Source: a virus. From it: a stretch of 64,000 nucleotides of DNA. Below are positions 20,242 to 39,504 of this stretch, piece after piece; within the stretch, counting starts at the first letter, position 1; each line of letters begins with the position of its first letter. The position numbers were made by a program, and so were the translations under genes. Under the pieces are notes generated by a model. The model saw only the letters and a program-made list of their open reading frames with translations, was not told where the DNA came from and did no database searches. The stretch lies in the IMG/VR virus record IMGVR_UViG_3300029305_006397, one strand, 5' to 3'.

Positions 20242-20254
20242 GTCGCACCTCCAC

Positions 20255-21127: not shown

Positions 21128-21128
21128 C

Positions 21129-21347: not shown

Positions 21348-21362
21348 TTAATGCTTCCTTTC

Positions 21363-21650: not shown

Positions 21651-21653
21651 AGC

Positions 21654-21956: not shown

Positions 21957-21968
21957 AGTTTCCTCCAT

Positions 21969-22340
21969 TTATCCGATCCAAAATTCCGATCCGTCAAATA
22001 CAGGATAATCTTTGCCATCAATGGTGATGTATTGATTAACAGGTGCGCTGCCATCAGCCTGATATGTATGTTTAACCTCAGAAACTTCACCAGTTTTCAT
22101 GTCAACTTTGCAATCAGTAGTGGCCTTAAATCCGTCATTCCATACAGATGTGAAGGTCGCATTCTTAATATCATCGTCCTCGGTCGTAAATCGTTCAGCA
22201 TCAGCATCCACATGGACGGCAAAATAAGTTCCTCCATTCTCAATACAATCATCAATCTGGAGGGAGAGTTCTTTCAGAAAATCTTCCTTACTGGCATACT
22301 TCATGCCGGAACCATTATCCGACTCAATATAAAATTTCAT
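21969..22340 (-). CDS. hypothetical protein (123 aa)
   Basis: ATG follows GGAG, just downstream of the upstream stop. The longer track ORF overlaps the upstream gene. Confidence 0.55.
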   Translation of the reverse strand: MKFYIESDNGSGMKYASKEDFLKELSLQIDDCIENGGTYFAVHVDADAERFTTEDDDIKNATFTSVWNDGFKATTDCKVDMKTGEVSEVKHTYQADGSAPVNQYITIDGKDYPVFDGSEFWIG

Positions 22341-22344
22341 ATTC

Positions 22345-22602
22345 TTACTCCATTTCACGTTTAATAATGACAACAGGGGCATCATCTGAGGGCTGATAGA
22401 CACAGGTCTGAATGCACTTCCGGCAGCTATCGTATTCGACCACGGCTACCATGTCCTTATCCTCACAGCAATCACGTTTGCCGTTGGGAATGAAATCGAT
22501 GTATACGCCAGGGAAATCATTGGGTTCATCTACTTCATGCTTTGCCCATACCTTGATTTTTCCAAGCGGAGTATCTATATAAAACTCTCGTTTATTTTCC
22601 AT
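22345..22602 (-). CDS. hypothetical protein (85 aa)
   Basis: Track ORF. AAAGGAG SD. Confidence 0.6.
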   Translation of the reverse strand: MENKREFYIDTPLGKIKVWAKHEVDEPNDFPGVYIDFIPNGKRDCCEDKDMVAVVEYDSCRKCIQTCVYQPSDDAPVVIIKREME

Positions 22603-22607
22603 CTGAT

Positions 22608-22823
22608 TTACTCCTTTGCTTCAACTTCGATAATAAGGTTCTGATCCATTGGATAGATGTAAATGACTTCCATATCAAGGGCAACGTTATCAACGCCCAG
22701 CAATTCATCTTCTACCCTGTACAGCTCGGTATAATCGTTTTCATCGTCATGCCATTCTTTGACGATAATCTCTCGACCCTGAAGCTGGATTCCTGCATCC
22801 AACATATCTCTGATAGTAATCAT
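22608..22823 (-). CDS. hypothetical protein (71 aa)
   Basis: GGAGG 5 nt before the ATG. Confidence 0.55.
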   Translation of the reverse strand: MITIRDMLDAGIQLQGREIIVKEWHDDENDYTELYRVEDELLGVDNVALDMEVIYIYPMDQNLIIEVEAKE

Positions 22824-22834
22824 TTGAACCTCCA

Positions 22835-22981
22835 CTACCAATCGTATTTTCCGTTCAACTCTTTGCGCATTTCATCATAGTCGCCATCGAATCCATCCGG
22901 GCCACAGAAGTGGAGAATAGAAAGAGTGGATTCTTTGCCAAATGCGTTGTAATATTCCAGAATGTCCTGACGATTCAACAT
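22835..22981 (-). CDS. small ORF (48 aa)
   Basis: Not in the track. GGAGGAA SD plus ATG. Fills a gap. Confidence 0.4.
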   Translation of the reverse strand: MLNRQDILEYYNAFGKESTLSILHFCGPDGFDGDYDEMRKELNGKYDW

Positions 22982-23469
22982 ACTTTTGCTTTTCCTCCCC
23001 ACAATTCATCGAATTTTGCAGTGCGCTCAGTAGGAGCTTTGCGAATTTCTTCTTTCATTTCATGGACAGCCTTTTGGATACCTGCAAGTGATTCTTTGTA
23101 TGAAAGATATTTGGTACACCAGCCAGGATAAACCTGACACATGCCATATTCCACGCATTCCCGAAGGAAATTTCCAACTTGAGTTGCTTCCTTGAGGACT
23201 TCCTTCTTTTCCTGCCAAGAATCATACCAAAGGTAGTCGAGGAAAATATCAATAGAGAAACCCTCATAGTAACCCGGTTCAATCTTCACATCGAAAAAGC
23301 GGAAGTTGTACTTATTCAGAATAAACTGGATTTCTTCTCGGTCAGCTTCAATGGTATCGGCAATTACATCGTAAACATCCTCTCCATCTTCCACTTCAAA
23401 GTCATCAGGATTATACACGTTCAAGCCGATGGTGATATAGTCCGAGGATTTATAGTTGATGGTTCCCAT
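22975..23469 (-). CDS. hypothetical acidic protein (164 aa)
   Basis: Track ORF. AAAGGAG SD. Confidence 0.65.
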   Translation of the reverse strand: MGTINYKSSDYITIGLNVYNPDDFEVEDGEDVYDVIADTIEADREEIQFILNKYNFRFFDVKIEPGYYEGFSIDIFLDYLWYDSWQEKKEVLKEATQVGNFLRECVEYGMCQVYPGWCTKYLSYKESLAGIQKAVHEMKEEIRKAPTERTAKFDELWGGKAKVC

Positions 23470-23486
23470 ATTGATAATCTCCTTTA

Positions 23487-23654
23487 TTATTTTGTGAATG
23501 TTTTAGAATTGCCATTCTTGTCGGTAATAGTTACGCTTGTACCAGTAGAGTACCAGTATTTAATACTGTTCCAAACCATATCTAATGTTTCACAGTCGTT
23601 ACCACATTCGACATAGCTTCTTCCAGTGTGATTATTTTTGATCGTAAATTCCAT
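23487..23654 (-). CDS. small ORF (55 aa)
   Basis: Not in the track. AAAGGAG SD plus ATG. Confidence 0.4.
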   Translation of the reverse strand: MEFTIKNNHTGRSYVECGNDCETLDMVWNSIKYWYSTGTSVTITDKNGNSKTFTK

Positions 23655-23679
23655 TCAAGATTCTCCTTTACGATAACAC

Positions 23680-23910
23680 CTACGTTTCATTGAAAAAGTC
23701 GTTAGTATCCAGACGGCGCAACATGGATTTGACTACCGCATTGATTTCCTGCAGAGTTCCAAACCAGAGTTCGCCGCCATTTAGGGATAATGAACAAAGG
23801 TTAGTTCCTTCAATGGGGTTCACCTCCAAAACACTCTGCATCAGCATCTTAGAGTTGTTCATTTCCATCCAAAGGGCGCAATCGCCGCGAATCATCTCCA
23901 AATATTCCAA
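23680..23910 (-). CDS. hypothetical protein (76 aa), TTG start
   Basis: Track ORF. GAGGAAGGGGA sits 7 nt before the TTG. Confidence 0.5.
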   Translation of the reverse strand: MEYLEMIRGDCALWMEMNNSKMLMQSVLEVNPIEGTNLCSLSLNGGELWFGTLQEINAVVKSMLRRLDTNDFFNET

Positions 23911-24402
23911 TTACCATTCCCCTTCCTCAAATTCAAAGCCCATAAGGTTTTCAATGCGCAGCACATGATCTTCCATCCAACGGAAATAAAAGTCATAGTG
24001 CTTGAGGGCAACATGGGTATCCATGTAGTTGAGATAGTAGGTCAAATCTTCTTCGGGATTGATTTCACCAGCATCCAGCAGATCACGATATTCGATCAGT
24101 TTGATGTATCCATCTTCTTCATCGAAGTTTTCCACACCATCTTCCTTTGCATCTGCTGCATATCTTTCTATTTCATCTTTGATTGCTTCGCGAATATCGT
24201 CTTTATCATTTTCAAAGGCATCGTTCAGATCGAATCTCGCCTGTTCAAATACACCTCGGAAGATAGAGTTAATATTCATATCTTTATTGGCAATCATATC
24301 CTTGAGAATATCCCAAAGATCATACTTGACATCTTCCAGCATAGTCAGATCGCATACCCCACAATCCAGCAGAGTACAGAGAATGCTATCTTTGTAATCC
24401 AT
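23911..24402 (-). CDS. hypothetical highly acidic protein (163 aa)
   Basis: Track ORF. AGGAGG SD. Confidence 0.65.
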   Translation of the reverse strand: MDYKDSILCTLLDCGVCDLTMLEDVKYDLWDILKDMIANKDMNINSIFRGVFEQARFDLNDAFENDKDDIREAIKDEIERYAADAKEDGVENFDEEDGYIKLIEYRDLLDAGEINPEEDLTYYLNYMDTHVALKHYDFYFRWMEDHVLRIENLMGFEFEEGEW

Positions 24403-24411
24403 TTGAACCTC

Positions 24412-24558
24412 CTATCCAATTCGATCAATGTGTTCTACAGGCACTTTATAATCAGTTTTTCCATCTGAGAAATATGCCTTGCCATCTGCAAAGCTGATAC
24501 CATTTTCATCGACGGCGCGGACGATCAATCCGACTTCATCAAAATAGGCAATAATCAT
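24412..24558 (-). CDS. small ORF (48 aa)
   Basis: Not in the track. AAGGAGGC SD plus ATG. Confidence 0.4.
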   Translation of the reverse strand: MIIAYFDEVGLIVRAVDENGISFADGKAYFSDGKTDYKVPVEHIDRIG

Positions 24559-24571
24559 TATGTTTGCCTCC

Positions 24572-24880
24572 TTATACCTCGATGTACTTCGTCAGTATGG
24601 GATAATAACCCCATGTGCCGCCAAACTTATCGGCGATAGAATCAAAGATTGCTTCCATCTGTTCCTCTCGACTGGAATACTCCTCGCCATCTTCGTCGTA
24701 ATCCATATCTTCCATACACTCGATTGCATCATCAAGGTCATTGCAAAGGACAGCTCCCAAAGAAAAGGCATTACCGAAGGGCGTAGTAGGGATAGAGAAC
24801 CGCACAATATCCGGCACATCATCGTCTCTCTCCATATATCGAACAGCTACATAGTAGTCGTGCATTACGGTATTTCCCAT
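24572..24880 (-). CDS. hypothetical acidic protein (102 aa)
   Basis: AAGGAGGA before the internal ATG. Confidence 0.55.
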   Translation of the reverse strand: MGNTVMHDYYVAVRYMERDDDVPDIVRFSIPTTPFGNAFSLGAVLCNDLDDAIECMEDMDYDEDGEEYSSREEQMEAIFDSIADKFGGTWGYYPILTKYIEV

Positions 24881-24890
24881 ATTGTCCTCC

Positions 24891-25484
24891 TTAGTATTCA
24901 AATCGTACTTCGTCTTTGTGGAAGTCTACATAGAAGTCAGCTTCATTGCCGCAGCCTTTAACACCACAAATCTGCTGGATAGCGCAGCAATCATCGAATT
25001 TTCCGATCATAAGTGCGCCGTACTTCTTCTTACAGTCAACGCACATTGCAGACCAACATCCACTTTCATCATTATTGAAATCATCAAAAACAACTTCTGT
25101 CTTATCTTCGCTAGTGAAGATCATGTGTCTTGCAATCGGATCGGGTTCATCCTCGGTCTGCTCACGGCGTTCATGAGCCTCTACGATATGATACAGGCCA
25201 GCATCCTTAACGGCCTTATGTACAGCTTCATTCCAGCCGAAGCTATCATCTTCCATGAGGTCGCGCTTGATCTTAGCGATGATATTGAGCTGATCGTCAT
25301 TGAACATGCCCTCATAGACAAGCTCCACATCTTCAATATCAACCTGCCGCTGATAACGCAGGTATGCTTCTCTCATTTCATCAAAGGTCAGGGTCAAAGA
25401 TACTTTATTTCCACTGAAGTCACGGTTGATCGTCAAATTTTCCATCCAGATCACCTTGTCCTTTCCCGTCCAGATATACTCCAT
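24891..25484 (-). CDS. hypothetical Cys-rich protein (about 185-197 aa; start uncertain)
   Basis: Track ORF. Candidate ATGs at 25484 and 25445 each have an SD. Confidence 0.55.
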   Translation of the reverse strand: MEYIWTGKDKVIWMENLTINRDFSGNKVSLTLTFDEMREAYLRYQRQVDIEDVELVYEGMFNDDQLNIIAKIKRDLMEDDSFGWNEAVHKAVKDAGLYHIVEAHERREQTEDEPDPIARHMIFTSEDKTEVVFDDFNNDESGCWSAMCVDCKKKYGALMIGKFDDCCAIQQICGVKGCGNEADFYVDFHKDEVRFEY

Positions 25485-25875
25485 TCTTAGCTTCCTGCTC
25501 ACGCTCCCACTTTCGCTGTTCTTCCCGGACTTCCCATACATGGTCAGACAGCTCTTTAATTACGATCTCCACAGCGCCCTCTGCACCATTGCTTCTGAAC
25601 CATGCGCGAACATTATCTTTCGTAGTGCTGATATTCGGAAACTCATACCATTCAAGGTAGAATTTAATGGTATTCAGCAAGGTATCCCATGCAATAACCT
25701 CCGGCTTCATGCGAAGATTCAGCATACGCTTGTAGGTTTTCTGATCGTTATCCATCATCAGGATAATCTCGTCGATAAAATCGGAGGTGTTGATTCCTCC
25801 GCCCTGTAATCCCCAACGCTCATTGAGGACTTCGTTGATCTTTTGTTGCTTGTTCGCAAGATGTTTAGCTATCAT
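25420..25875 (-). CDS. hypothetical protein (151 aa)
   Basis: Track ORF. TGGAGGA SD. Confidence 0.65.
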   Translation of the reverse strand: MIAKHLANKQQKINEVLNERWGLQGGGINTSDFIDEIILMMDNDQKTYKRMLNLRMKPEVIAWDTLLNTIKFYLEWYEFPNISTTKDNVRAWFRSNGAEGAVEIVIKELSDHVWEVREEQRKWEREQEAKNGVYLDGKGQGDLDGKFDDQP

Positions 25876-26240
25876 TCGTAATCCTCCATTTTTCGATCTC
25901 TGTTGGGCTTGCCAACGTATTTTCCTTTCAAACGCAGAATAAAACCATGGAGTCCGGTTACAGCGTTGCTATGAGAAAACATGTTGGTATTGGGATAGTA
26001 GAACAGATTACTTTCTTCTACGTCGAACATATACATGTTTGCAAAAATTGCACGTTCGATTTCCATTTGAGTAAATGGCGTAGCAAAAATGTACCGAGAA
26101 CCAATGCTGCTTGCCAGATCGAATCCGGCTACCAGACGATTGCTTAAACGATCATGGGAAATGTAGATGGGTTTTCCGTCTGCGTGATATTCACAAAAGT
26201 CAGAAAATCCGCTGATATAAGGGATGTATTCATGCTCCAT
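25872..26240 (-). CDS. hypothetical protein (122 aa)
   Basis: Track ORF. TAGGAGA SD. Confidence 0.6.
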   Translation of the reverse strand: MEHEYIPYISGFSDFCEYHADGKPIYISHDRLSNRLVAGFDLASSIGSRYIFATPFTQMEIERAIFANMYMFDVEESNLFYYPNTNMFSHSNAVTGLHGFILRLKGKYVGKPNRDRKMEDYE

Positions 26241-26249
26241 ATTGATCTC

Positions 26250-26639
26250 CTATTCCAGTTCATTCACAAGCTCAACGAGTGCGCCGTAGGTATTTTCACA
26301 CACCATGCCGCACATGTAGTTATGGATTTCAGTAATCCACTGGTATACAAATTCGTCATCATCATCTTCATACTGGCAATCTTCAAACCAATGCTTCTTA
26401 GTAAAGGTTCTGAATTTTTCCATGTTCCGGGTAATGAGGTCAGCCCACTTACATACAGCAGTGACATCAGAAGCATCGAATTTTTCCACTTCGACCTTCT
26501 TGATGATCTCCATGCAGAACCTATCGTAGTTCTCCTTGAAGGGTTCGGGGATGTAGCAGACGGTTACTTCGGCATCGTACACGGTATCGTAGGTATCAAA
26601 ATCGTCCTGGGAAATTGCCACGAGTTCATACAAAGTCAT
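26250..26639 (-). CDS. hypothetical acidic protein (129 aa)
   Basis: ATG follows the conserved leader AAAGATAGGAGGAAG. Confidence 0.6.
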   Translation of the reverse strand: MTLYELVAISQDDFDTYDTVYDAEVTVCYIPEPFKENYDRFCMEIIKKVEVEKFDASDVTAVCKWADLITRNMEKFRTFTKKHWFEDCQYEDDDDEFVYQWITEIHNYMCGMVCENTYGALVELVNELE

Positions 26640-26884
26640 AAGATTCTTCCTCCTATCTTTTGATAACGGATTCATGGGAGCGTTAGCGATACACCTTTAT
26701 AACCGGATGGGCAAGGCCGCTATTCTGTGATTCTTAATCTACTCTTCAGGTTAAACCCTTATGTTACCATCGGTTCCCAATCATTTAAGGCCATCCCAGG
26801 TCTTGATTCGCCTCCGTCTATCTTTCAGCGCACCCACTACTTTAGATATGTGGTGTGTAGCTTTAACCAGCCGAAGCTGGCCTA

Positions 26885-27169
26885 TCAGCGTTTGCGCTCA
26901 TAAGGTTCGTACCCTTCCATGTCCCATTTTCCATCGAACAACTCTCCGTTAAGCCATCCTTCGGAGTCGAAGTAGTTGACGCGCAGCCAACCATTTTCCT
27001 GATAGGTTTTGACAATAATTTCGTCCGGGCGGACACTCATTGTAACCAACTCTCCGTTTTCATTGTGGCCGATAAAATCAGAGTCAGAGTCACCATACTC
27101 TGCCATAATCTGTTTGCGAACCTCGACTTCGCCAAATCGTGCGGACAGTTCATTGGGAATGCTTTTCAT
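26885..27169 (-). CDS. hypothetical protein (94 aa)
   Basis: AAGGAGG before the internal ATG. Confidence 0.55.
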   Translation of the reverse strand: MKSIPNELSARFGEVEVRKQIMAEYGDSDSDFIGHNENGELVTMSVRPDEIIVKTYQENGWLRVNYFDSEGWLNGELFDGKWDMEGYEPYERKR

Positions 27170-27455
27170 AAGAACCTCCTTGTTTTTCCATCTCGGCAAT
27201 CATTGCAGCTTTCATCATGCTTTTAGCCGTTTCGTTAATAACGCTTAAGACACGATCTCCATACAAGTAATAGTAGTCAAACCGATCAAAGCTCTTATGG
27301 TATTCGCCCATCGGTTCGACAAGCTCTCCATCCTTGTTTTTTATTGTGCCGAAGCTGCATAGGAACCGATTGTCATTTATCCAATAGCCGACCAAACTTC
27401 CATCAAACGCCCTCCCATCTGCGCTGGTTACGAGTGCGCCAGCGTACAAATTCAC
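27150..27455 (-). CDS. hypothetical protein (up to 101 aa; GTG start uncertain)
   Basis: Track ORF. The 5' end overlaps a small TM ORF in another frame. Confidence 0.45.
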   Translation of the reverse strand: MNLYAGALVTSADGRAFDGSLVGYWINDNRFLCSFGTIKNKDGELVEPMGEYHKSFDRFDYYYLYGDRVLSVINETAKSMMKAAMIAEMEKQGGSYEKHSQ

Positions 27456-27567
27456 GGTGACGCTTGATTCTGTTATAGTGTTTAACGACCTTTTTCCATC
27501 CGTACATTACCGCCTCGGAAATTCCAACGGCAATGCTCAGGCTTCCCATGAGGACGATAATGCTCAT
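27403..27567 (-). CDS. possible small membrane protein (54 aa)
   Basis: Not in the track. AGGAGG SD plus ATG. MSIIVLMGSLSIAVGISEAVMYGW followed by a basic tail. Confidence 0.35.
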   Translation of the reverse strand: MSIIVLMGSLSIAVGISEAVMYGWKKVVKHYNRIKRHREFVRWRTRNQRRWEGV

Positions 27568-27582
27568 TTGATTTACCTCCTG

Positions 27583-27846
27583 TTATTCTTCTTCGTACCT
27601 CTCTGCCAATTCATCGGCAGCGCAAGCATATACATCATCGGCATCTCTTGCCCAAAGTTCATGATTGATAGCATACAAGAGTTCCTTGCACAGATCGACA
27701 AGCTCAGACTTGCTCAGTTCATGCCCATAATTTGCAAGTGCATCAAACAGGCAATCCGGGCAATCTCTCAGACCTTCAATAATGCTCTGCATCGTCAGGG
27801 TCTTAGAATTTTCCATCTGCATACCTTCCTTCTTTTCTTTTAGCAT
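27583..27846 (-). CDS. hypothetical acidic protein (77-87 aa)
   Basis: Track ORF. GAAGGAAGG SD favors an ATG near 27816. Confidence 0.55.
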   Translation of the reverse strand: MLKEKKEGMQMENSKTLTMQSIIEGLRDCPDCLFDALANYGHELSKSELVDLCKELLYAINHELWARDADDVYACAADELAERYEEE

Positions 27847-27871
27847 ATCGGATACTTTGGATTTTCCGATG

Positions 27872-27908
27872 TAGCATTAAAGAATCAGGAGAGGCTTTCG
27901 CCTCTCCC
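27872..27908 (-). terminator. intrinsic terminator
   Basis: Minus-sense GGAGAGGC-GAAA-GCCTCTCC then TGATTCTTTAAT, about 25 nt after the stop at 27933. Confidence 0.55.
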
Positions 27909-27932
27909 TATCTCCCATCTGCGTTTATGCTG

Positions 27933-28280
27933 TTAGTCACCGCCGACTGCGCCAACCACCAAACAATCGTATTCTTCCGGCAGGTCATAGTCCCAATCAA
28001 GCTGGGCTTCAACGTACAAAACCTTTTCAACGTACAGGATTTCGCCAAACTGACAGAGGAAATCTTTGGCCTGTTCTTCATACCGGGCATCACAGGTTAC
28101 AAATACGCTGTTCGTTCCGGCAAGATTTTCCAGCTTAAAAAGCTCCTCATTGTCGCGCACGTTATTGAAGATCGCAAGGAAATCTCTTGCATACTTGTTC
28201 AGGTCTGCGCTCAGTTCGACCTTAATCTGCACGGCATCCTTCTTCTCCGTATAAAACTTCATCTTCATGTGATTTTCCAT
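27933..28280 (-). CDS. hypothetical protein (115 aa)
   Basis: Track ORF. AAAGAAAGG before the ATG. Lies downstream of hammerhead a. Confidence 0.6.
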   Translation of the reverse strand: MENHMKMKFYTEKKDAVQIKVELSADLNKYARDFLAIFNNVRDNEELFKLENLAGTNSVFVTCDARYEEQAKDFLCQFGEILYVEKVLYVEAQLDWDYDLPEEYDCLVVGAVGGD

Positions 28281-28306
28281 CCTTTCTTTTCTTGCAGGTG
28301 TGGCTT

Positions 28307-28396
28307 CCTACGACACAAGCGGAAGGAAAGATAGGAAGGAAGAAAACCTTCCGCTTGTCATTTCGGCTGGTTGCCGTCCAGCTCTCGTCAGGTAGG
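28307..28396 (-). ncRNA. type-I hammerhead ribozyme (HH-a)
   Basis: Minus-sense CCTAC-CUGACGAG-[GCTGG/CCAGC]-CGAAA-[12-bp stem III]-GUC/GTAGG. All core nucleotides are present and stem I is CCTAC/GTAGG. Predicted cut is between 28312 and 28311. Confidence 0.75.
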
Positions 28397-28594
28397 TGTG
28401 GTTAATTTGAATGATTTGGTAGTCAATGCTGCCAGCTTTTGTTCGCAAGCGGTGTAGCTACCTCTATAAATGGTTTTCCAGTTATAACGGCATCTGCCGC
28501 CAACAGTGTAGAATCGTCTTTCTTTGAGTTCCCATACAGGCTTCAGGTCAAAGCCAATCGTTTCAGAAATTACATATCTTGCTTTGTTAGCCAT
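28388..28594 (-). CDS. hypothetical protein (68 aa)
   Basis: Track ORF. GGAGGC SD. Its UGA stop is the UGA of the hammerhead CUGA core. Confidence 0.6.
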   Translation of the reverse strand: MANKARYVISETIGFDLKPVWELKERRFYTVGGRCRYNWKTIYRGSYTACEQKLAALTTKSFKLTTPT

Positions 28595-28602
28595 GTTGCC
28601 TC

Positions 28603-28794
28603 CTACTTAATCGCAATGCGTTTAGAATTGTTCTCCAAGACAGCTTCAATTTTCCGTTTGACATGCAGCATGTTTTCTTTTACATGATTTGCAAGGGCTT
28701 CCATACCCTCTGTAGGATTTTCCATGCTATCTGCTTCATGCTGCAATGCGTTCATAATCCATCTAAGCTCGTTATGAGTTAAGGTCTGCATCAT
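28603..28794 (-). CDS. hypothetical protein (63 aa)
   Basis: ATGATG follows AAGAGGGTG. The upstream part of the 141-aa track ORF covers ribozyme HH-b and another gene's frame. Confidence 0.55.
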   Translation of the reverse strand: MMQTLTHNELRWIMNALQHEADSMENPTEGMEALANHVKENMLHVKRKIEAVLENNSKRIAIK

Positions 28795-28830
28795 TTGTAG
28801 ACACCCTCTTTCTTTTCTATATGGTGATTT

Positions 28831-28897
28831 TCCACGACACAGCCGGAATTTTCCGACTATGTTTCGACCGGGCATCACCCGGTTCTCGTCAGGTGGA
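28831..28897 (-). ncRNA. type-I hammerhead ribozyme (HH-b)
   Basis: TCCAC-CUGACGAG-[ACCGGG/CCCGGT]-CGAAAC-[10-bp stem III, GGAAAAUUCC apex]-GUC/GTGGA. Cut is between 28836 and 28835. Confidence 0.8.
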
Positions 28898-28900
28898 TTG

Positions 28901-29062
28901 TTACTTGAGTTCCCATTTTTCCATCCACGGCTCTCCTTGCCGATCATACTTATCTGCGTACATTCGATCAAGGGCTTCCTGCGCTTTCTTTTCCGATGAA
29001 TAGATTTCTCTGATTCCTTCGTCACCATAGCAGCCGGACATGATAACGTAAACGTACTTCAT
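28901..29062 (-). CDS. small ORF (53 aa)
   Basis: Not in the track. AGGAGG 5 nt before the ATG. Its TAA stop is 3 nt before HH-b. Confidence 0.45.
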   Translation of the reverse strand: MKYVYVIMSGCYGDEGIREIYSSEKKAQEALDRMYADKYDRQGEPWMEKWELK

Positions 29063-29071
29063 ACATACCTC

Positions 29072-29287
29072 CTAACCATCATTCCATGCGTAATCGTACC
29101 AGAGGGAAATCACATCGTTTTCCGGCTCAAAAGGCGTATCATCAAACGACAGGGCATTCAGACCTTCATCCTTAAGCCGCTGCATTGCCATCGTTTCCAG
29201 CTCCTCGTTGGATTTTCCGACTGCATCTTCGTCGTCAATGTATACCTTATAGAAACGCTTTACCTCAGCCATGATAGCTACTGCCAT
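29072..29287 (-). CDS. hypothetical acidic protein (71 aa)
   Basis: Track ORF. Conserved leader GGAAAGATAGGAGGAAA. Confidence 0.6.
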   Translation of the reverse strand: MAVAIMAEVKRFYKVYIDDEDAVGKSNEELETMAMQRLKDEGLNALSFDDTPFEPENDVISLWYDYAWNDG

Positions 29288-29383
29288 AAGTGTTTCCTCC
29301 TATCTTTCCTTATGCGTTTGGCTTTAGGGGCTTGTGACCTTATGCCTTGCCGCATTAACAGGGCTTATGCCCTGCCACTCTGC

Positions 29384-29569
29384 TTAATCTCGATTGGAAA
29401 GCTCCGTGTGATAGATATGCACACTCTGAAGGCGTCTGCTTCCAAATTTCCGTCGAAATTCCTCTTTCGCATCTTTCATGTTTGCCTTGCTACCGTTTCG
29501 ATGATCGCTTACATACTCAAATTCTCCGTAATCGTGACCATCATCATAAAGCGCAATGTAGTTTTTCAT
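29384..29569 (-). CDS. hypothetical protein (61 aa)
   Basis: Track ORF. AGGAGGC SD. Confidence 0.55.
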   Translation of the reverse strand: MKNYIALYDDGHDYGEFEYVSDHRNGSKANMKDAKEEFRRKFGSRRLQSVHIYHTELSNRD

Positions 29570-29580
29570 GCCGCCTCCTG

Positions 29581-29778
29581 TTAATCCATAGTGTAGTCAT
29601 TGATTCTACAAAATTCCGACCAGTCTCCGCCAAGTCGCCGGATAAGCTCCCTTTCGATCTTGACGCGCTCTTGCGGATAACGCTTGTTCTTCGGGTAGAG
29701 GATTTCCTGCGCAACAATGATTCCATAGGTGCTTACCAAATCTTCATGCGAATAATCCATGTACTTGTTTTTCCGCAT
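29581..29778 (-). CDS. hypothetical protein (65 aa)
   Basis: Track ORF, translationally coupled to its neighbors. Confidence 0.55.
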   Translation of the reverse strand: MRKNKYMDYSHEDLVSTYGIIVAQEILYPKNKRYPQERVKIERELIRRLGGDWSEFCRINDYTMD

Positions 29779-29781
29779 GGT

Positions 29782-30027
29782 TTAACCCTCCATCATGCAG
29801 CCCATTTCAAGCTGTACACGGTGATTGAAATCTTCCATCGCAGCCTTAAGGTCATTCAGGAAGTAATGACCGTGACAATAGGATTTTCCGTTCATACAAA
29901 ACCATGTAATCCACATGATTCCCTGACTTGTTTCAGTTTTTGCCAGAACAACTTCGCCCTCAATGACAGGCTCCGCATGGATAATCTCACAATTTTCCGA
30001 GTAGTTTTTGTTGTAGCGCCTTTCCAT
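29782..30027 (-). CDS. hypothetical protein (81 aa)
   Basis: Track ORF. Conserved leader GGAAAAGATAGGAGGAAA. Confidence 0.6.
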   Translation of the reverse strand: MERRYNKNYSENCEIIHAEPVIEGEVVLAKTETSQGIMWITWFCMNGKSYCHGHYFLNDLKAAMEDFNHRVQLEMGCMMEG

Positions 30028-30082
30028 GTATGTTTCCTCCTATCTTTTCCTTATGGTTTCCATGGATATTTCCATGGGGTTT

Positions 30083-30150
30083 CCCACGACGCTCTCAGGA
30101 TTTTCCATCAAGCGTTTCGGTTGCTAACCGGGCAGCCATCATCAGGTGGG
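30083..30150 (-). ncRNA. type-I hammerhead ribozyme (HH-c)
   Basis: CCCAC-CUGAUGA-U-[GGCUGC..GCAACC]-GAAAC-[stem III with GGAAAAUCC apex]-GUC/GTGGG. The stem II closing pair is noncanonical. Cut is between 30088 and 30087. Confidence 0.65.
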
Positions 30151-30151
30151 G

Positions 30152-30355
30152 TTAAAAAACGAATCCGGCATAAACCATCTTGTTTCCGTCCAGCATCCTC
30201 CATGCGTTAGCATCGTCCCATGCCGTACAACAGTAACGTTTTTCCGACCTGTCATATTCGCCGCGGATATAGACCCGATTTGCAGACTCTTTCAACTTGA
30301 AAAATTCTCCATGCTTCAGGTCTTTCAGCTTGTACATTCCTGCATCTCTTTCCAT
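30152..30355 (-). CDS. hypothetical protein (67 aa)
   Basis: Track ORF. Its stop is 1 nt before HH-c. Confidence 0.55.
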   Translation of the reverse strand: MERDAGMYKLKDLKHGEFFKLKESANRVYIRGEYDRSEKRYCCTAWDDANAWRMLDGNKMVYAGFVF

Positions 30356-30356
30356 G

Positions 30357-30551
30357 TTAGGCTCCCTTCTTAATCCGCTTTACTTCGATATGATCGTAGC
30401 CTTTATCCGGGTGAAGAAAATTCCGAATACCATAGCTTCGTGCTTCCTGCTCATTAGTTGCTTCGATCTTGTGATATTCCAAGGCCATGCCAGATTTTCC
30501 GACACCAATTCGATAGAGATATTTCCTTGCCATTGTGCTTCCTCCGTTCAT
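30357..30551 (-). CDS. hypothetical protein (64 aa)
   Basis: Track ORF. ATGA overlap with the upstream small ORF. Confidence 0.55.
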   Translation of the reverse strand: MNGGSTMARKYLYRIGVGKSGMALEYHKIEATNEQEARSYGIRNFLHPDKGYDHIEVKRIKKGA

Positions 30552-30721
30552 TTACCGATTGCCTCGGCGTAGTATTCGTCGAAATTTCCGAAAACTTCCA
30601 GATACACCATGCCACCATTGCCCCGATAAGGCCGGATATTTTTCATGATGAATCGATATTCCGTGAACATCAATGCAAGCACACAAAGGGCAATACATGC
30701 TCCAATCGCCAGCTTTTTCAT
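30548..30721 (-). CDS. small membrane/secreted protein (57 aa)
   Basis: Not in the track. Conserved leader GATAGGAGGAAAATC plus ATG. MKKLAIGACIALCVLALMF signal-like N-terminus. Confidence 0.45.
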   Translation of the reverse strand: MKKLAIGACIALCVLALMFTEYRFIMKNIRPYRGNGGMVYLEVFGNFDEYYAEAIGK

Positions 30722-30757
30722 GATTTTCCTCCTATCTTTTCCATGTGGTTTTGACTT

Positions 30758-30823
30758 CCCACGACAGGCCAGCTCAAGGCCAGCCTGTTTCGGCTCGTTG
30801 TCAACTCGCCATCGTCAGGTGGG
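30758..30823 (-). ncRNA. type-I hammerhead ribozyme (HH-d)
   Basis: CCCAC-CUGACGA-U-[GGCGAG..CGAGCC]-GAAAC-[9-bp stem III CAGGCUGGC/GCUGGCCUG]-GUC/GTGGG. Cut is between 30763 and 30762. Confidence 0.7.
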
Positions 30824-30828
30824 TATGC

Positions 30829-31290
30829 TTACCATTCCTCCAATTCTTCCTCCAGATCGGCGATTTCTTCCTCCAGATCATCGGCATCCGACTGGTAATT
30901 GCTTCTCCAGATTGCCATTCTCAGGCTTTCGATTTCTTCCTCGTCCAGCTCATTCATTCCGGCAAGCTCACGATTGGAATTGATTTCGTCGATTTGTTCC
31001 TCGACTTCTTCTTCGTAACTTTCCTTGAGTTCTTCCAGCTCGTACTGTTTTTCTTCCAGTTCGGCGCGGATAACTTTCTCGGAACGGATTCCAACCCATT
31101 CATACACGGATTCCGGCTCAAACCAAAGCAGATCATTTAGACCAGTTTCGGTCATTCCATCCGGGTACAAATCCTCCAGAACAGCCTCCAGCTGCGCACA
31201 TTTTCCGGCGTTGCGTACACGATCAAGGGTATCGACAGCTCCAGACCATGCCTCGAAAGTTTCCAAATCAAGCTCGTATGTGATTTTCAT
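30829..31290 (-). CDS. hypothetical very acidic protein (153 aa)
   Basis: Track ORF. SD GGAAGGGG. Confidence 0.65.
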   Translation of the reverse strand: MKITYELDLETFEAWSGAVDTLDRVRNAGKCAQLEAVLEDLYPDGMTETGLNDLLWFEPESVYEWVGIRSEKVIRAELEEKQYELEELKESYEEEVEEQIDEINSNRELAGMNELDEEEIESLRMAIWRSNYQSDADDLEEEIADLEEELEEW

Positions 31291-31397
31291 TGTAAAATTC
31301 CCCTTCCTATCTTTCCAAATGATTGACAGGAAGGGGCAAACTATGATATATTTCTGTATAGGAAGGGCGGAAGGAAATTCCCTCCACCCCCATGCGG

Positions 31398-31481
31398 TTA
31401 GATTTCGTCCGGGTTATCCGTGGCGCGAATAATCCCATCAGACCACATCCAGCCGTATTTAGTCCGATACAGGGCTTTCAT
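31398..31481 (-). CDS. possible micro-ORF (27 aa)
   Basis: AGGAAGGAGGA SD plus ATG directly after the bidirectional terminator. Confidence 0.25.
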   Translation of the reverse strand: MKALYRTKYGWMWSDGIIRATDNPDEI

Positions 31482-31505
31482 GGCGGTTGTCCTCCTTCCT
31501 ATCTT

Positions 31506-31555
31506 TTTATAAAAAGCGGTCTTGTGTTGGTAGCACAAGGCCGTTTTTATCTTTT
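31506..31555. terminator. bidirectional intrinsic terminator
   Basis: 10-bp stem CGGTCTTGTG/CACAAGGCCG (one mismatch), flanked by an A-run on one side and TTTTTATCTTTT on the other. Confidence 0.6.
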
Positions 31556-31766
31556 AAAGCCGTTTTTTCTACGATACGGCAAAACGCTTGACCCATGCTA
31601 TATGGGAATGAATCGGGGTTCAAGGGATTGCCCCGGTCGCCTCCAGCCGTGTTCTTACATGCCGCTGGACACAGGTAGCCTGCATAATCATCTCATTCTC
31701 CGGCTACAGAGTTTTGCGCGGTTTCGATAGACGCACATTTATTGGCGGTTGCTATCGGGAATGGTT

Positions 31767-31828
31767 AACCCAGACCAGCCCATGTGGGCGTGGTTTCGTC
31801 GCAATTTTCAGCGACTCGTCAGTGGGTT
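31767..31828 (-). ncRNA. type-I hammerhead ribozyme (HH-e)
   Basis: AACCCA-CUGACGAG-[UCGC/GCGA]-CGAAAC-[stem III]-GUC/TGGGTT. The UGA of the core is the stop codon of 31819..32016. Cut is between 31773 and 31772. Confidence 0.8.
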
Positions 31829-32016
31829 TCAGGGTATTCCATTGCTATGGCTCTGACGGCTTCAATATCCGTCAACATTCCTCTTTCATATACGCGCAAA
31901 ATATTTTCTATGCGTGTTTTTCTTAATTCTTTGATAGACGTTAACATTAACGTATTTTCTGCATCTGTCTGAAGCATATCTTGCGCAAACTCATGCACAT
32001 AGCGTTTTCTTCTCAT
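31819..32016 (-). CDS. hypothetical protein (65 aa)
   Basis: Track ORF. SD GAAGGGAAGG. Its stop is embedded in HH-e. Confidence 0.6.
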   Translation of the reverse strand: MRRKRYVHEFAQDMLQTDAENTLMLTSIKELRKTRIENILRVYERGMLTDIEAVRAIAMEYPETH

Positions 32017-32038
32017 GTTTATACCTTCCCTTCTCTTT

Positions 32039-32107
32039 CCATACCCACGCCCCGGCAGGGCGTGACGCTCACGGCTTAAATGGCTTTTTATAGTCGCCGT
32101 GACGACT
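32039..32107 (-). ncRNA. pistol ribozyme (Pistol-f)
   Basis: AGUCG-UCACGG-CGACU hairpin. The loop is complementary to the downstream CCGUGA (pseudoknot). Then GCG, P3 UCACGCCC/GGGCGUGG, G/U, AUGG pairing with CCAU. Same spacing as the env25 pistol as I recall it. Cut is between 32044 and 32043. Confidence 0.75.
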
Positions 32108-32418
32108 CAGACAATTATGCAGCGTTTGAACGGATTTTCGCAGGGGTCGCAACCGAAACCGAAATTTTCTCCGTATATATCGATATACTGAAGTCCAGCG
32201 AATTTGCCGTTCTGAATGGTTTTTAACTCCATTGTAGCGCGGCGCATAGCCTGTTTTGCCTGTTTAATGGTTACGTCGTCGATATTGTAGAATCTGTTTA
32301 GCTTGTTTTGAATTTTATTCAAGAAATTCATTGCAAGGTCATTTGTAACATTCTTTTTATCGGACTCCATGAAACAGTCAAACCCGTATGCACGAAGATA
32401 AAAACCCTGTTTTTTCAT
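32107..32418 (-). CDS. hypothetical protein (103 aa)
   Basis: Track ORF. SD GGGAGGG. The last base of its TGA stop (A, 32107) is the first base of pistol P1. Confidence 0.6.
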   Translation of the reverse strand: MKKQGFYLRAYGFDCFMESDKKNVTNDLAMNFLNKIQNKLNRFYNIDDVTIKQAKQAMRRATMELKTIQNGKFAGLQYIDIYGENFGFGCDPCENPFKRCIIV

Positions 32419-32441
32419 TGTATAACCCTCCCTATCTATTT

Positions 32442-32507
32442 TTGAACCCGCCCCAAACGGGGCGACGCTTTGGGCCTAATCAACTATTTAAAGTCGCCCA
32501 AACGACT
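32442..32507 (-). ncRNA. pistol ribozyme (Pistol-g)
   Basis: AGUCG-UUUGGG-CGACU-UUAAAUAGUUGAUUAGG-CCCAAA-GCG-UCGCCCC-GUUU-GGGGCGG-G/U-UCAA. The linker UUAAAUAGUUG is identical to the env25 pistol as I recall it. The pseudoknot and P2 covary with Pistol-f. Cut is between 32447 and 32446. Confidence 0.8.
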
Positions 32508-32763
32508 AAACGCGCATTACATTGTCAAGATAAATGCGCATTGCACCCTTACGAATATATGCCCGACCTGCCGTCGAATAGTGGACTTTATGACGATGAA
32601 AACCCACATATCCTTCAGGGTTAACCCATGCCGCAATATAATCGCATTCGAATTTATCGCCGTCGTCGGGTTCCCAAAGTGCAACGCCGAAACAGTTGGA
32701 AAAATGGCAAACGCCAACCGGGGCAATATTAGAATAACGCTTGTAAAGTGCTACATTTTTCAT
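32506..32763 (-). CDS. hypothetical protein (85 aa)
   Basis: Track ORF. SD GAGGGAAGG. Its TAG stop overlaps pistol P1. Confidence 0.6.
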   Translation of the reverse strand: MKNVALYKRYSNIAPVGVCHFSNCFGVALWEPDDGDKFECDYIAAWVNPEGYVGFHRHKVHYSTAGRAYIRKGAMRIYLDNVMRV

Positions 32764-32797
32764 TGTGTTTTACCTTCCCTCTTTTTTTTAGGTTATT

Positions 32798-32852
32798 CAC
32801 CCGACGCCCGGCAGGGCGTTTCGTCTTAATTTTCAAAGACTCTTCAGGGGCG
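32798..32852 (-). ncRNA. type-I hammerhead ribozyme (HH-h)
   Basis: CGCCC-CUGAAGAG-[UC..GA]-CGAAAC-[GCCC-UGCC-GGGC]-GUC/GGGTG. Cut is between 32803 and 32802. Confidence 0.8.
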
Positions 32853-32855
32853 TTA

Positions 32856-33176
32856 TTATCTCAAGTTGTCGTTATATGCAATATCCCTGTTTTTGATTGC
32901 AATTTCGATTCGCTTTTTGCTAACGTCGCCGCCGAAAATGTGACGGGCGTATTCGCGCAAAAACTCATAGAGATATTTTGCGGTTGTATTGGAGTAACAC
33001 CAATTCCGACCCAAAGTCAACGCCGCCGCGCCCTGCGCGTCATAATCAACGATTGCAATAACGCTGTCATAAGACTGGAAAATAACAGCATTATTGGAGT
33101 GAATGATAAACTGGTTTGCAACGGGGCGACCACTTCGGGGGGATACCATGTTCCTAACACTTGCATATTTCATCAT
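32856..33176 (-). CDS. hypothetical protein (106 aa), first gene of the ribozyme-punctuated operon
   Basis: Track ORF. SD GGAAGGTG. The 18-nt motif lies about 25 nt upstream. Confidence 0.6.
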   Translation of the reverse strand: MMKYASVRNMVSPRSGRPVANQFIIHSNNAVIFQSYDSVIAIVDYDAQGAAALTLGRNWCYSNTTAKYLYEFLREYARHIFGGDVSKKRIEIAIKNRDIAYNDNLR

Positions 33177-33203
33177 GTTTTACACCTTCCTATTCTTTTC
33201 TTG

Positions 33204-33221
33204 TTTGCAAGTAATGTTTAT
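33204..33221 (-). promoter_or_regulatory. conserved 18-nt motif copy E (ATAAACATTACTTGCAAA)
   Basis: Lies upstream of the first gene of the leftward operon. Confidence 0.5.
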
Positions 33222-33664
33222 TACTATGCATAAACCCGACTTTCGACGGGCTTTAGTCGCCTGTTATAATCTCGTTTGAATGTCAAGCCCTAAGCAGCTT
33301 GCAGGGACTTTCGGCGTATGCGGTACTTGTTTGCATTCTGCCGGATTTGTGATTCTTTCTCGATTCTAACAAGCGTCTAAAGCCTATTGAGTAGACTTTA
33401 GTTAGAAAAGATAGAAAAGATAAAGGTTTGAGGGCTTTTAATGAGGCTGTAAAAACAGCGTCAAGACTTAGGATTATACGCGCCCTTATTAGGGGATTTT
33501 TCGACGGCCTGCACCTTTGCGGTATAGGTTTTTAATTAACCATTGCAGCCCCGGACTTGCGACCATTCGCCCTGCGACCTTTGCCGCTTTTTTCGCCTTT
33601 TTGAGACGGGGTTCAATCGTGCGCGTAGTATCCTTTGCGCCCTTGAATTTATTCAATTTTCAAG

Positions 33665-33693
33665 TTGCCTTTTGCGTACAAACGTGGTATAAT
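33665..33693 (+). promoter_or_regulatory. sigma70-like promoter with extended -10 (TTGCCT-17-TGgTATAAT)
   Basis: Read directly. The -10 is embedded in the palindrome CGTGGTATAATAACCACG. A GC-rich untranslated tract follows. Confidence 0.45.
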
Positions 33694-33786
33694 AACCACG
33701 TTCGGCACGGCCTCGGCTTCCCTCTCAACCTTGCAGGGCTTGCGTCCTCTCGGGGTTCGTGGTTCGGCCTCGGGCTTGTGTCGTTC

Positions 33787-33814
33787 GGGTTCCGGTTCCG
33801 GGGTTCCGGTTCCG
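33787..33814. repeat. perfect tandem duplication of 14-mer GGGTTCCGGTTCCG
   Basis: Two exact copies: 33787-33800 and 33801-33814. Confidence 0.8.
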
Positions 33815-33844
33815 TTGCCGTCCTGACGTGTATTATGTTACACC

Positions 33845-33858
33845 ATATTGCGCAATAC
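33845..33858. promoter_or_regulatory. palindromic operator-like site ATATTGCGCAATAC
   Basis: Repeated at 33903-33916, upstream of the RHH-like gene. Confidence 0.45.
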
Positions 33859-33902
33859 GTCAACCCGTATTTTTAACCAAAAATATCAATTCGTATTTGT
33901 GT

Positions 33903-33916
33903 ATATTGCACAATAC
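33903..33916. promoter_or_regulatory. palindromic operator-like site ATATTGCACAATAC
   Basis: Second copy, 15 nt before the ATG at 33931. Confidence 0.45.
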
Positions 33917-33930
33917 ATTATAGGATTATT

Positions 33931-34149
33931 ATGTACGATAAAGATAAAGCGATAAAAAGACAAAACGATTTTAATAAATCGAATTATGATAGATTAAACA
34001 CGACTATACCGAAGGGACGCAAGGCCGATATAGTTGCATATTGCGATAGTATTGGAACCACGCCAAACGGCTTAATTAATGAATTGTTGCGGTTTGAATT
34101 GGGGTTTACACCTGAACAATGGAAGGAACGGGCGACGGCTGAAGAATAG
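33931..34149 (+). CDS. small RHH/Arc-like DNA-binding protein (72 aa)
   Basis: Track ORF. Paralog of 13282..13488 (NYDRLNTTIPKGRKADIVAYC...NGLINELL..ELG..PEQW). Confidence 0.55.
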   Translation: MYDKDKAIKRQNDFNKSNYDRLNTTIPKGRKADIVAYCDSIGTTPNGLINELLRFELGFTPEQWKERATAEE

Positions 34150-34254
34150 TAATACTGTATTTTTTGTTTAATGTTGCTATACTTTATAGCTAACCGTTTA
34201 CGGTTAATTATATGCGGTTAATTAACCGTGTTTGAAAATTGGGGCGAATTTTAG

Positions 34255-34278
34255 CGACGGCGCAAACCGTCGTTTTTT
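34255..34278 (+). terminator. intrinsic terminator
   Basis: CGACGG-CGCAAA-CCGTCG followed by TTTTTT. Confidence 0.55.
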
Positions 34279-34933
34279 GTTGTGCGCTGTTGGGCGTTTG
34301 GGGCTGTTTGCAAGGCCAGGGCGACTGTTACCGGGGGCGGCGGTTGCCGTGGGTTTGCTTGATTTTTGCGGCGGCGATAGCCCCCGGATTTATTCGACCA
34401 AAAAAGCGAAAAAATTAGCTAATATCGCATTTTAGGCGACAGCCCCGGCCCCTAGGGGTATTTTACACTTTTTTAACATTTTCGCGCGATCCGCCGTCTG
34501 GTGTCTGGTATATCTATGACATATTGATTTTTGAACCGCATTCCGATCCTAAAAATGCTGCAAGATCGCAATTCAAAATCCACTTTGATTTAATCGACGG
34601 TATACTTCAACGGTAGCAGCTTTTACTATTTTCAAAAAGCTATTGAAACTCAGTGTCTTTTTAGGTCAATTTAAATCACCCTCAAGCCTGGACTTTCATG
34701 ATTTCTACCTATAATACCTCTCCTCTTTTACCTGTCGCAAAATAAATAAGACGAATCAAAGTCAATCTGATTCATTGTAAAAACTATTGAGTTTCAGCAC
34801 TTATTTCAATAAATACAACCAGTCTTTTCGAATACAAATACTAAAATTTTCGACGGTAAACCGTTGTTCACTTTTCGTGTTATTTTGAAAAGCTCTGAAA
34901 TCTAATAGTTTTAAAGAATATTGTCATTTGATC

Positions 34934-34962
34934 TTGACAACTAACCTTATCTGTGTTAAAAT
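34934..34962 (+). promoter_or_regulatory. sigma70-type promoter TTGACA-17 nt-TAAAAT
   Basis: Consensus -35, 17-nt spacer, near-consensus -10. Points toward the rightward block. Confidence 0.55.
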
Positions 34963-34988
34963 CATTATAGTTATGTTGTCCATTGTTT

Positions 34989-35026
34989 TTTGCACTTAAT
35001 TTTTATCAATAAACATTATGTGCAAA
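34989..35026. promoter_or_regulatory. inverted pair of the 18-nt motif (TTTGCACTTAATTTTTAT / ATAAACATTATGTGCAAA)
   Basis: Two copies in opposite orientation separated by 2 nt form a 38-bp near-palindrome about 30 nt downstream of the -10. Confidence 0.55.
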
Positions 35027-35246
35027 TTATATTGCGTTGCTTATGTTTATGCGCAGCAACTAACATCTCCATGGAGCGCGGAAGCGCGACCGTAACCCCG
35101 GAGGGCGTAAGCCCGTAGGTCGTAGCCCCCCTTCCCCAGAGGGAAGGTATGAAGCGCAGCGTAAGCAAGCGACCCCTGCTGCGCCCCACGCGCGGCAGTA
35201 TACTATAATCTTTCTAAGTTAATCTATATAAGTATTGAAGTGAAAA

Positions 35247-35268
35247 TTTCCACGCAAATCTGTGGAAA
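35247..35268. promoter_or_regulatory. inverted repeat TTTCCAC-N8-GTGGAAA (operator/iteron-like, DnaA-box-like half sites)
   Basis: Read directly. Repeated at 35290-35310. Confidence 0.45.
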
Positions 35269-35289
35269 AAAACGCACCCTCTATAAATA

Positions 35290-35310
35290 TTTCCACAAAA
35301 TCGCGTGGAT
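35290..35310. promoter_or_regulatory. inverted repeat TTTCCAC-N8-GTGGA(T)
   Basis: Second copy, 36 nt before the TTG start of 35346. Confidence 0.45.
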
Positions 35311-35345
35311 TTTTTATCAGAGGCTGAAAGGAGGGAAACATGTGA

Positions 35346-36197
35346 TTGGATTTTCAAGATAAAGACAAAACTGAATATCCTGAAACACGAAATAAAGAGC
35401 TAAGTTATTATCAACAACGTTTTTTGAAACTGCCAAGAATGATAATCGAAAATTTCAACATCGGAGATCAGCGTCTAGCTGTATATACTTATTTGGCAAT
35501 ACGATGTGGACTTGATTATAAAGTTGACACAGATTTAAAAACGATCATTCTTTCTTTCGGTAAAAAACCCGATAGACATCCAGGTCAAATAAATGATAAA
35601 ACTGAAAACTCCTTATCAAAACTGATCGAGCTTGGGTATATAAAAAAGTTAAGCCAGGATTGCGATTTAAATGTCAATCAAACCTTCTTTTTCGATCAGG
35701 AATGGATAGATAACAATTGCCCTCAATTCACGATTGCTTATATAGACGAAATCGAACGAATACTGAGCAGTGACATTTCAAATAAAGACATCACCCTTTT
35801 AGTGTTCGCTTATTTAAGATTAAAGATACACAGGCGTCCAAATTCTATGCCAAAGAAATATTGGGGAAATCAGGAAGGCTATAAGGCCGATAATCCAGAG
35901 GTTTATAACTGTTATTATCGAGACATTGCTAAAGAGCTTGGACTAACAGTTCATGTAGTTCAAAAGGCGGTTGATGCTTTAATTGAGATTGGCTTAATAT
36001 ATGCAGAAGAACTCCCCAGACATTTGGTGAAAAGCAGCAATGGACAAGAAAGATGGATGACTGGACAAACACTTTTTTGCAATACATACAAACGCGATGC
36101 AAAATATGAGTTTGTCAAAGGTAAACAGTATTATGAGAAAGAGATCAAAAATAAAAAGAAAATAATAGAACAAGCGAAAGGAGGTAACTCCATATGA
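35346..36197 (+). CDS. putative winged-helix DNA-binding protein (replication initiator or transcription regulator), 283 aa
   Basis: Track ORF with a TTG start 10 nt after AAAGGAGGG. Two HTH-like segments. Function is inferred from position and composition only. Confidence 0.55.
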   Translation: MDFQDKDKTEYPETRNKELSYYQQRFLKLPRMIIENFNIGDQRLAVYTYLAIRCGLDYKVDTDLKTIILSFGKKPDRHPGQINDKTENSLSKLIELGYIKKLSQDCDLNVNQTFFFDQEWIDNNCPQFTIAYIDEIERILSSDISNKDITLLVFAYLRLKIHRRPNSMPKKYWGNQEGYKADNPEVYNCYYRDIAKELGLTVHVVQKAVDALIEIGLIYAEELPRHLVKSSNGQERWMTGQTLFCNTYKRDAKYEFVKGKQYYEKEIKNKKKIIEQAKGGNSI

Positions 36198-36397
36198 ATA
36201 CGCAAAATCATACAGGTATTTATCCTGTAAGTGCTTTTACGACCAAAGATGATCCAGATTTAAAAGCGGAAGATTTTAACAGCGGTGCAGATTGGCGAGA
36301 AATACATTCTTTAATCAGGGACATATCAGACGATGATTGCTTTGCAGAATACGCTCATGATTTTTTTGAAGAATATGAATCGGTTATTGCTGATTAA
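36194..36397 (+). CDS. hypothetical acidic protein (67 aa)
   Basis: Track ORF. AAAGGAGGT SD. Confidence 0.55.
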   Translation: MNTQNHTGIYPVSAFTTKDDPDLKAEDFNSGADWREIHSLIRDISDDDCFAEYAHDFFEEYESVIAD

Positions 36398-36456
36398 TCT
36401 AAAATTCTCAGACTAAGTAAGGATGAATGAAATGGGTAAATAAAGAAGGTGTTTGT

Positions 36457-39342: not shown

Positions 39343-39358
39343 ATAGCACAAAATGAGC

Positions 39359-39389: not shown

Positions 39390-39504
39390 ATTTACTATAA
39401 TTTGAAATATGCCGAATTTCAGTGTTTTTTGTTTTATCAAAATTGACAGAATCGGATAGGAGATGTTCATTTGGGAGAAATTTCCTGTACGCGGAGGAAT
39501 AAAT

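Follow-up and report, generated by a model that had tools for sequence, protein, structure and literature searches.

The spacer between two small genes of this phage lies within a long leftward operon of small phage genes and reads as a type-P5 twister ribozyme (29384..29325, minus strand) followed by a 37-nt translation leader. We give this assignment a probability of roughly 0.88 on the strength of sequence and structure models. The window, by which we mean the whole 64,000-nt stretch of DNA that was analyzed, comes from a complete 146-kb virus record with terminal repeats. A whole-window Rfam scan placed RF02684, the type-P5 twister family, at these positions with 50.9 bits against a gathering score of 37.6, i.e., 13 bits over the threshold. 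The match spans model positions 1-58 of 58, with E = 5e-10 in a local search. This is the only RF02684 match in the 146-kb phage record. The type-P5 twister reportedly goes back to Roth et al. 2014, as reviewed. After removal of one weaker, overlapping match from the same clan, a local scan of 29200-29480 returned no other Rfam family at E ≤ 10 on either strand; over the same interval, strands, and cutoff, the hammerhead, pistol, twister-sister, hatchet, HDV-like, and hairpin models had no match.

These results both support and correct a sequence-only reading of the same DNA. That reading had placed a ribozyme-equivalent element of a class other than hammerhead or pistol directly after a stop codon, in the position occupied by the operon's ribozyme series. 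The position is borne out (TAA 29386-29384 to ATG 29287), the hammerhead and pistol cores that it failed to see are likewise missing from the model scans, and the other class appears to be the type-P5 twister. Its suggestion that the spacer held no known ribozyme core, and could represent a novel class, conflicts with a full-length RF02684 match above threshold and with two pseudoknots that can both form. It had also recorded a loose resemblance to twister while being unable to fit the consensus. The RF02684 model does fit, and the pieces named in that resemblance belong to the twister core, with AAUGCG supplying the U^A site plus P2 and CAAGCC lying in L4. Judged by its sequence, the element is a twister, a known class, and belongs, as an unexceptional representative, to a common family of phage ribozymes.

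Twisters are built from essential stems P1, P2, and P4 and from two pseudoknots, T1 and T2 (PMC5408937). All three stems are present here, with P2 and P4 at the short end of the range. The conserved loop nucleotides and the U-A dinucleotide beside P1 (GAG.G, UAAUGC, UC.CAAGC) all fit the cmscan consensus line, and the topology is that of type P5, with P1 and P4 closed by loops and the chain ending where P5 would lie. P1 contains the perfect hairpin CAGGGC-AUAA-GCCCUG (29374-29359) that the earlier reading had singled out. Pseudoknot T1 can form through three Watson-Crick pairs between GUG 29378-29376 and CAC 29336-29334, and T2, as read from the sequence, can form between GC 29350-29349 and GC 29331-29330; both lie outside the scoring of the Rfam covariance model, and T2 is GC/GC in all sequences examined and therefore offers no covariation. 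The junction containing the predicted U^A site is UAA 29357-29355, and the published twister cleavage site is a U-A in junction J1-2 (PMC5408937). The defining sequence and structure hallmarks of a twister are thus all present, and catalysis is predicted from them.

Like the type-P5 twister of the literature (RF02684, clan CL00120; PMC5408937), the element runs in the order P2 strand, GAGNG, closed P1, U^AA, P2 strand, GC, and P4 with loop UCNCAAGC. It differs in having a P2 of three pairs followed by an A/G mismatch at the fourth (A29384/G29351), a P4 of three pairs, one extra C in L4, about 4 extra nucleotides in the region that joins T2 to P4, and no closing P5 helix. The mismatch at the fourth P2 pair results from fusion of the stop codon to the ribozyme: position 1 of the twister model is the final A of the 61-aa ORF's stop. 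A closing P5 helix, which is optional in this type, was considered and rejected: across 45 phage twisters, cognate 5'-flank/3'-tail duplexes averaged -10.36 kcal/mol versus -10.42 kcal/mol for non-cognate ones (permutation p = 0.55). In the window, UUUCC.AUC (29400-29392) and GAU.GGAGG are joined in the MFE fold, an arrangement that would mask the Shine-Dalgarno sequence; this P5-like fold was also dropped, because cognate duplexes were no stronger than non-cognate ones in that set.

Table. Predicted parts of the twister ribozyme, its leader, and the flanking genes (window coordinates).
Feature	Position	Strand	Details
Upstream 61-aa ORF	29384..29569	minus	has homologues; called as a 61-aa gene in related contigs
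Spacer	29383..29288	minus	96 bases; between 61-aa ORF stop and 71-aa ORF ATG
P2 3'-side strand GCA	29381..29383	minus	pairs with UGC 29354-29352 (cmscan alignment)
Loop L1 strand GAGUG	29376..29380	minus	read from sequence
P1 hairpin	29358..29375	minus	7 pairs GCAGGGC/GCCCUGU (29375-29369 / 29364-29358), loop AUAA
Predicted scissile U^A	29356..29357	minus	U29357/A29356; model alignment and published U-A site (PMC5408937)
P2 5'-side strand UGC(G), then GC	29349..29354	minus	GC 29350-29349 is the T2 strand
P4 and loop L4	29326..29340	minus	AGG 29340-29338 / CCU 29328-29326; L4 UCACAAGC plus extra C 29329
CGCAU box	29312..29316	minus	complement of AUGCG 29355-29351; P2 competitor, candidate post-cleavage 5'-terminal helix (P2')
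Leader core GAAAGAUAGGAGG	29296..29308	minus	recurrent; holds Shine-Dalgarno GGAGG 29300-29296, 8 nt before ATG
Downstream 71-aa ORF	29072..29287	minus	ATG at 29287

Five related metagenome contigs with the same gene order, reached via homologues of the 71-aa protein, all carry an RF02684 match in the same spacer (44.9 to 46.7 bits). The spacer alignment shows no change in the catalytic core or the CGCAU box across the window and the five relatives, and the ribozyme-fused stop codon is TAA or TGA. P1 is an 18-nt hairpin in the window and in relative L003 and a 43-nt branched stem with its basal pairs kept in the others (L004-L006, L008), so that distal P1 varies freely, as a twister predicts. 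A 25-nt indel separates the short- and long-P1 forms among these near-identical phages, whose 71-aa proteins are 81-97% identical. The relatives are too alike to reveal compensatory changes in P2, P4, T1, or the CGCAU helix. At another locus (L007:2277-2716), the upstream gene overlaps a 63%-identical homologue of the 71-aa protein by 4 nt, leaving no spacer and no ribozyme, and the ribozyme has therefore been gained or lost between related phages. A related-locus search with the 61-aa protein found one locus (L002), with no ribozyme match there, and one such search with the 71-aa protein found no locus, the homologues used above having come from a separate search. No blastn match to 28000-31000 was found in the phage GenBank collection.

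Three pattern scans of IMG/VR returned 131 unique phage ribozymes of this subfamily; because the patterns prescribed the letters of the conserved core, information comes only from the positions left free. The middle pair of T1, left free in 48 phage twisters, is U-A in 34, G-C in 9, A-U in 3, U.G in 1, and a mismatch in 1. It is thus canonical or wobble in 47/48 and covaries, and the U-A of the window is the commonest form. At least 5 consecutive P1 pairs form in 112 of the 131 ribozymes, whose P1 comes in 122 different sequences; the two outer pairs of P4 form in 123. The departures seen in the window recur as well, 14/131 having an A/G mismatch as their fourth P2 pair and 12/131 an extra L4 nucleotide. 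The surroundings are similarly regular: a stop codon ends 0-2 nt upstream of the ribozyme in 62 of 138 records, and a Shine-Dalgarno sequence with a start codon follows within 70 nt in 114 of them (median, 30 nt). On these counts, the predicted twister of the window is a typical member of an abundant phage family.

Several individual records from the survey deserve mention. One phage contig carries five type-P5 twisters within about 2.7 kb (L101:2682-5402, plus strand), each with its own leader and start codon; L220 and L234, which are the same contig, are listed with it under five-twister arrays. On the minus strand of L036, near 4136-4173, lies the 5' half of a twister (GCAGAGUG, then a P1 with GCAUAAGC in its loop like that of the window, followed by UAAUGCGGC); no recognizable P4/L4 comes after it, and this looks like a truncated or decayed copy. 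Four sequencing runs, in contig form and one of them RNA, were compared with 28600-30100, and the RNA run covered the spacer over a 33-nt piece only. A 1116-nt gut-metatranscriptome contig (run X20 record 5) matches window positions 29352-29384 over 33 nt only, with 2 mismatches and unrelated flanks, and probably represents a twister from some other organism, similar in its P1.

Given that sequence and structure models place the element in the family, that the relatives conserve it, and that its phage context is typical, we infer a course of events that comprises cleavage, a strand swap, and an effect on stability or translation. As the polycistronic RNA emerges, P2 (GCA/UGC), the P1 hairpin, P4, and the T1 and T2 pseudoknots would fold, and the RNA would cleave itself between U29357 and A29356, a position predicted by homology (PMC5408937). 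Since the cut falls one nucleotide after P1 in the type-P5 permutation, the upstream message, with the 61-aa gene, would end in a stable 3' hairpin, one nucleotide past the GC-rich P1, and would carry a 2',3'-cyclic phosphate. The downstream message, with the 71-aa gene, would start at A29356 and carry a 5'-OH there, with 69 nt ahead of its start codon, and would retain P4, the CGCAU box, and the Shine-Dalgarno sequence. After the cut, AUGCG at the new 5' end would probably switch from the upstream GCA to the downstream CGCAU. Such a switch would free the upstream fragment and leave a 5'-terminal stem-loop right before the ribosome-binding site.

The long-range AUGCG/CGCAU helix proposed in the sequence-only reading survives inspection to the extent that the strands are complementary and pair in the MFE fold of the spacer, where they enclose GGC/GCC and AGG/CCU, although this nested fold as a whole does not exceed shuffled sequence significantly in stability (z = -1.5 to -2.0). 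This helix and P2 are mutually exclusive, and energy folding of the full spacer favors the helix over P2, so that an inactive conformer is possible. Across the survey, one of the words CCGCA, CGCAU, or GCAUU (complements of AAUGCGG) lies beyond P4 in 30 of 102 downstream-tail clusters, which are not fully independent, against a background of 11-12% (p about 1e-6), both for windows drawn at random from the same strand of the same contigs and for the 44-nt stretches that precede other ribosome-binding sites. The box is therefore found in only about 30% of phage type-P5 twisters, with an enrichment of about 2.5-fold over these genomic and other-leader backgrounds; shuffle controls overstated it at about 4-fold. 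Pairing between the tail and the opening 7 nt of the 3' product is seen in 63 of the 102 MFE folds versus 37.7 ± 4.3 with shuffled tails, and a CGCAU-type box often abuts the Shine-Dalgarno sequence directly. P2 is invariant in all collected sequences and thus gives no covariation for the box against P2. We found no earlier description of a CGCAU-type box in the literature examined, a scope outside which the original twister paper (Roth et al. 2014) lies.

A post-cleavage strand swap is the most economical reading of AUGCG/CGCAU, with its function put forward conditionally. We tentatively suggest, as a possibility that we would not yet favor over its negation, that a (C)CGCAU(U) box located between P4 and the Shine-Dalgarno sequence in a sizeable fraction of phage type-P5 twisters displaces the upstream P2 strand after the cut. 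The box could thereby make cleavage irreversible, release the P1-ended upstream message, and leave the downstream message capped by a near-blunt stem-loop, with a 5'-OH, immediately before the ribosome-binding site.

An alternative hypothesis is that AUGCG/CGCAU, together with GGC/GCC and AGG/CCU, is the main structure before cleavage and acts as a conformational switch that keeps the ribozyme off or tunes translation, with cleavage being conditional. This nested fold is indeed the MFE structure of the spacer, and complements that compete with P2 are enriched downstream of phage type-P5 twisters, but a post-cleavage role fits the same data equally well. Moreover, transcription reaches the box about 35 nt later than P2, which lets the ribozyme fold first; the stability of the nested fold is not significantly above that of shuffles (z = -0.3 to -2.0); and no ligand- or protein-binding feature was identified in the spacer. 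We consider such a switch unlikely.

It is more improbable still that the element is a decayed twister relic that no longer cleaves and serves only as a structured intergenic spacer or leader. Its several departures from the consensus (a 3-bp P2 with an A/G mismatch, a 3-bp P4, the extra L4 C, and the longer joining region) could be taken as signs of decay, and truncated twisters do exist in phage contigs, L036 without P4 being one example. However, each departure is also found in other phage twisters, the score stands 13 bits above the curated threshold, no strongly conserved loop nucleotide is lost, and both pseudoknots are preserved. The core is also invariant in the five relatives even though P1 length and the flanking leader vary.

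The three GCAUAAG repeats on which the earlier reading had partly relied are present in the window (GCATAAG at 29370-29364, 29345-29339, and 29315-29309), but the triple is lost in the five related loci and is near chance level, with about 0.7 triple 7-mers within 62 nt expected per shuffled 64-kb window. Copy 1, which is the P1 loop, is missing from the relatives with a long P1; L003 has a changed copy 2; and copy 3 has a 1-nt deletion in 5/5 relatives. The repeats were accordingly rejected as binding sites. The comparison of homologous spacers thus retains the core and the CGCAU box and discards the repeat triple, and with it goes the proposed protein-binding leader, which had rested on those repeats. 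That the spacer represents a new class of self-cleaving RNA, or a protein-binding leader assembled from the repeats, is highly improbable: three exact 7-mers within 62 nt and a position equal to that of the operon's other ribozyme spacers speak for it, but a known class accounts fully for the first 60 nt, and the repeats are unconserved in relatives and occur at about the shuffled rate.

The exact 22-nt "conserved leader" of the sequence-only reading occurs once in the window, even with 3 mismatches allowed, whereas its 13-nt core, RAAAGAUAGGAGG, does recur at about six minus-strand sites, where it lies upstream of other minus-strand genes. No terminator-like site (GC-rich hairpin plus T-run) was found in 28800-29900, and no promoter-like site (-35/-10 hexamer pair) was found inside the spacer. 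Two promoter-like sites lie outside the spacer, a count equal to the shuffle expectation. Promoter- and terminator-like sites therefore offer no alternative reading of the spacer.

Other structured RNAs occur in the same window. Three pistol ribozymes were found at 3617-3686, 32039-32107, and 32442-32507 (all minus strand; 61.6-68.4 bits against a threshold of 34.5), and two of the three lie in the leftward operon of the twister. A type-I hammerhead-like layout (CCCAC, CUGAUGA or CUGACGA, CGAAAC, a stem-loop, GUC, GUGGG) can be read at 30050-30130 and at 30745-30820, both on the minus strand; Rfam hammerhead models had no match at E ≤ 1 across 20000-40000, nor at E ≤ 10 across 30000-30900. A RAGATH-36 RNA lies at 839-1000 (minus strand, 73.2 bits) and a drum RNA at 41483-41590 (plus strand, 62.1 bits), and two tRNA clusters, at 586-4250 (minus strand) and 40031-41982 (plus strand), together hold 22 tRNA matches.

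Twisters have been found near phage genes and near other ribozymes, and a role in polycistronic processing has been proposed while their function was left open (PMC6765202, PMC10085705). The operon in the window resembles those clustered phage ribozymes (PMC6765202, PMC10085705) in having pistol ribozymes and hammerhead-like cores, and to these reports we add a count, over 138 phage examples, of how closely stop codon, ribozyme, and Shine-Dalgarno sequence are packed. A second point of comparison is the RiboJ-type insulator (PMC6206723), in which upstream RNA is likewise cut off by a self-cleaving ribozyme and the ribosome-binding site of the insulated gene is immediately preceded by a hairpin. 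RiboJ was engineered from a hammerhead and given a designed hairpin (PMC6206723), whereas here the hairpin would be formed by the cleaved 5' end and a natural CGCAU box.

With the unassigned spacer read as a twister, the leftward operon has at least three ribozyme classes (hammerhead-like, pistol, and twister) in equivalent positions, and the annotation of the phage's ribozyme series is completed. Three classes in equivalent positions fit the published idea that the cut matters and the ribozyme class does not. The survey, for its part, quantifies the packing of stop codon, ribozyme, and ribosome-binding site in phage contigs. If true, box-based capping would be a natural counterpart of engineered ribozyme insulators. 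The box observation leads to a testable idea on how both cleavage products might be released and protected, which bears on the role of ribozymes in phages.
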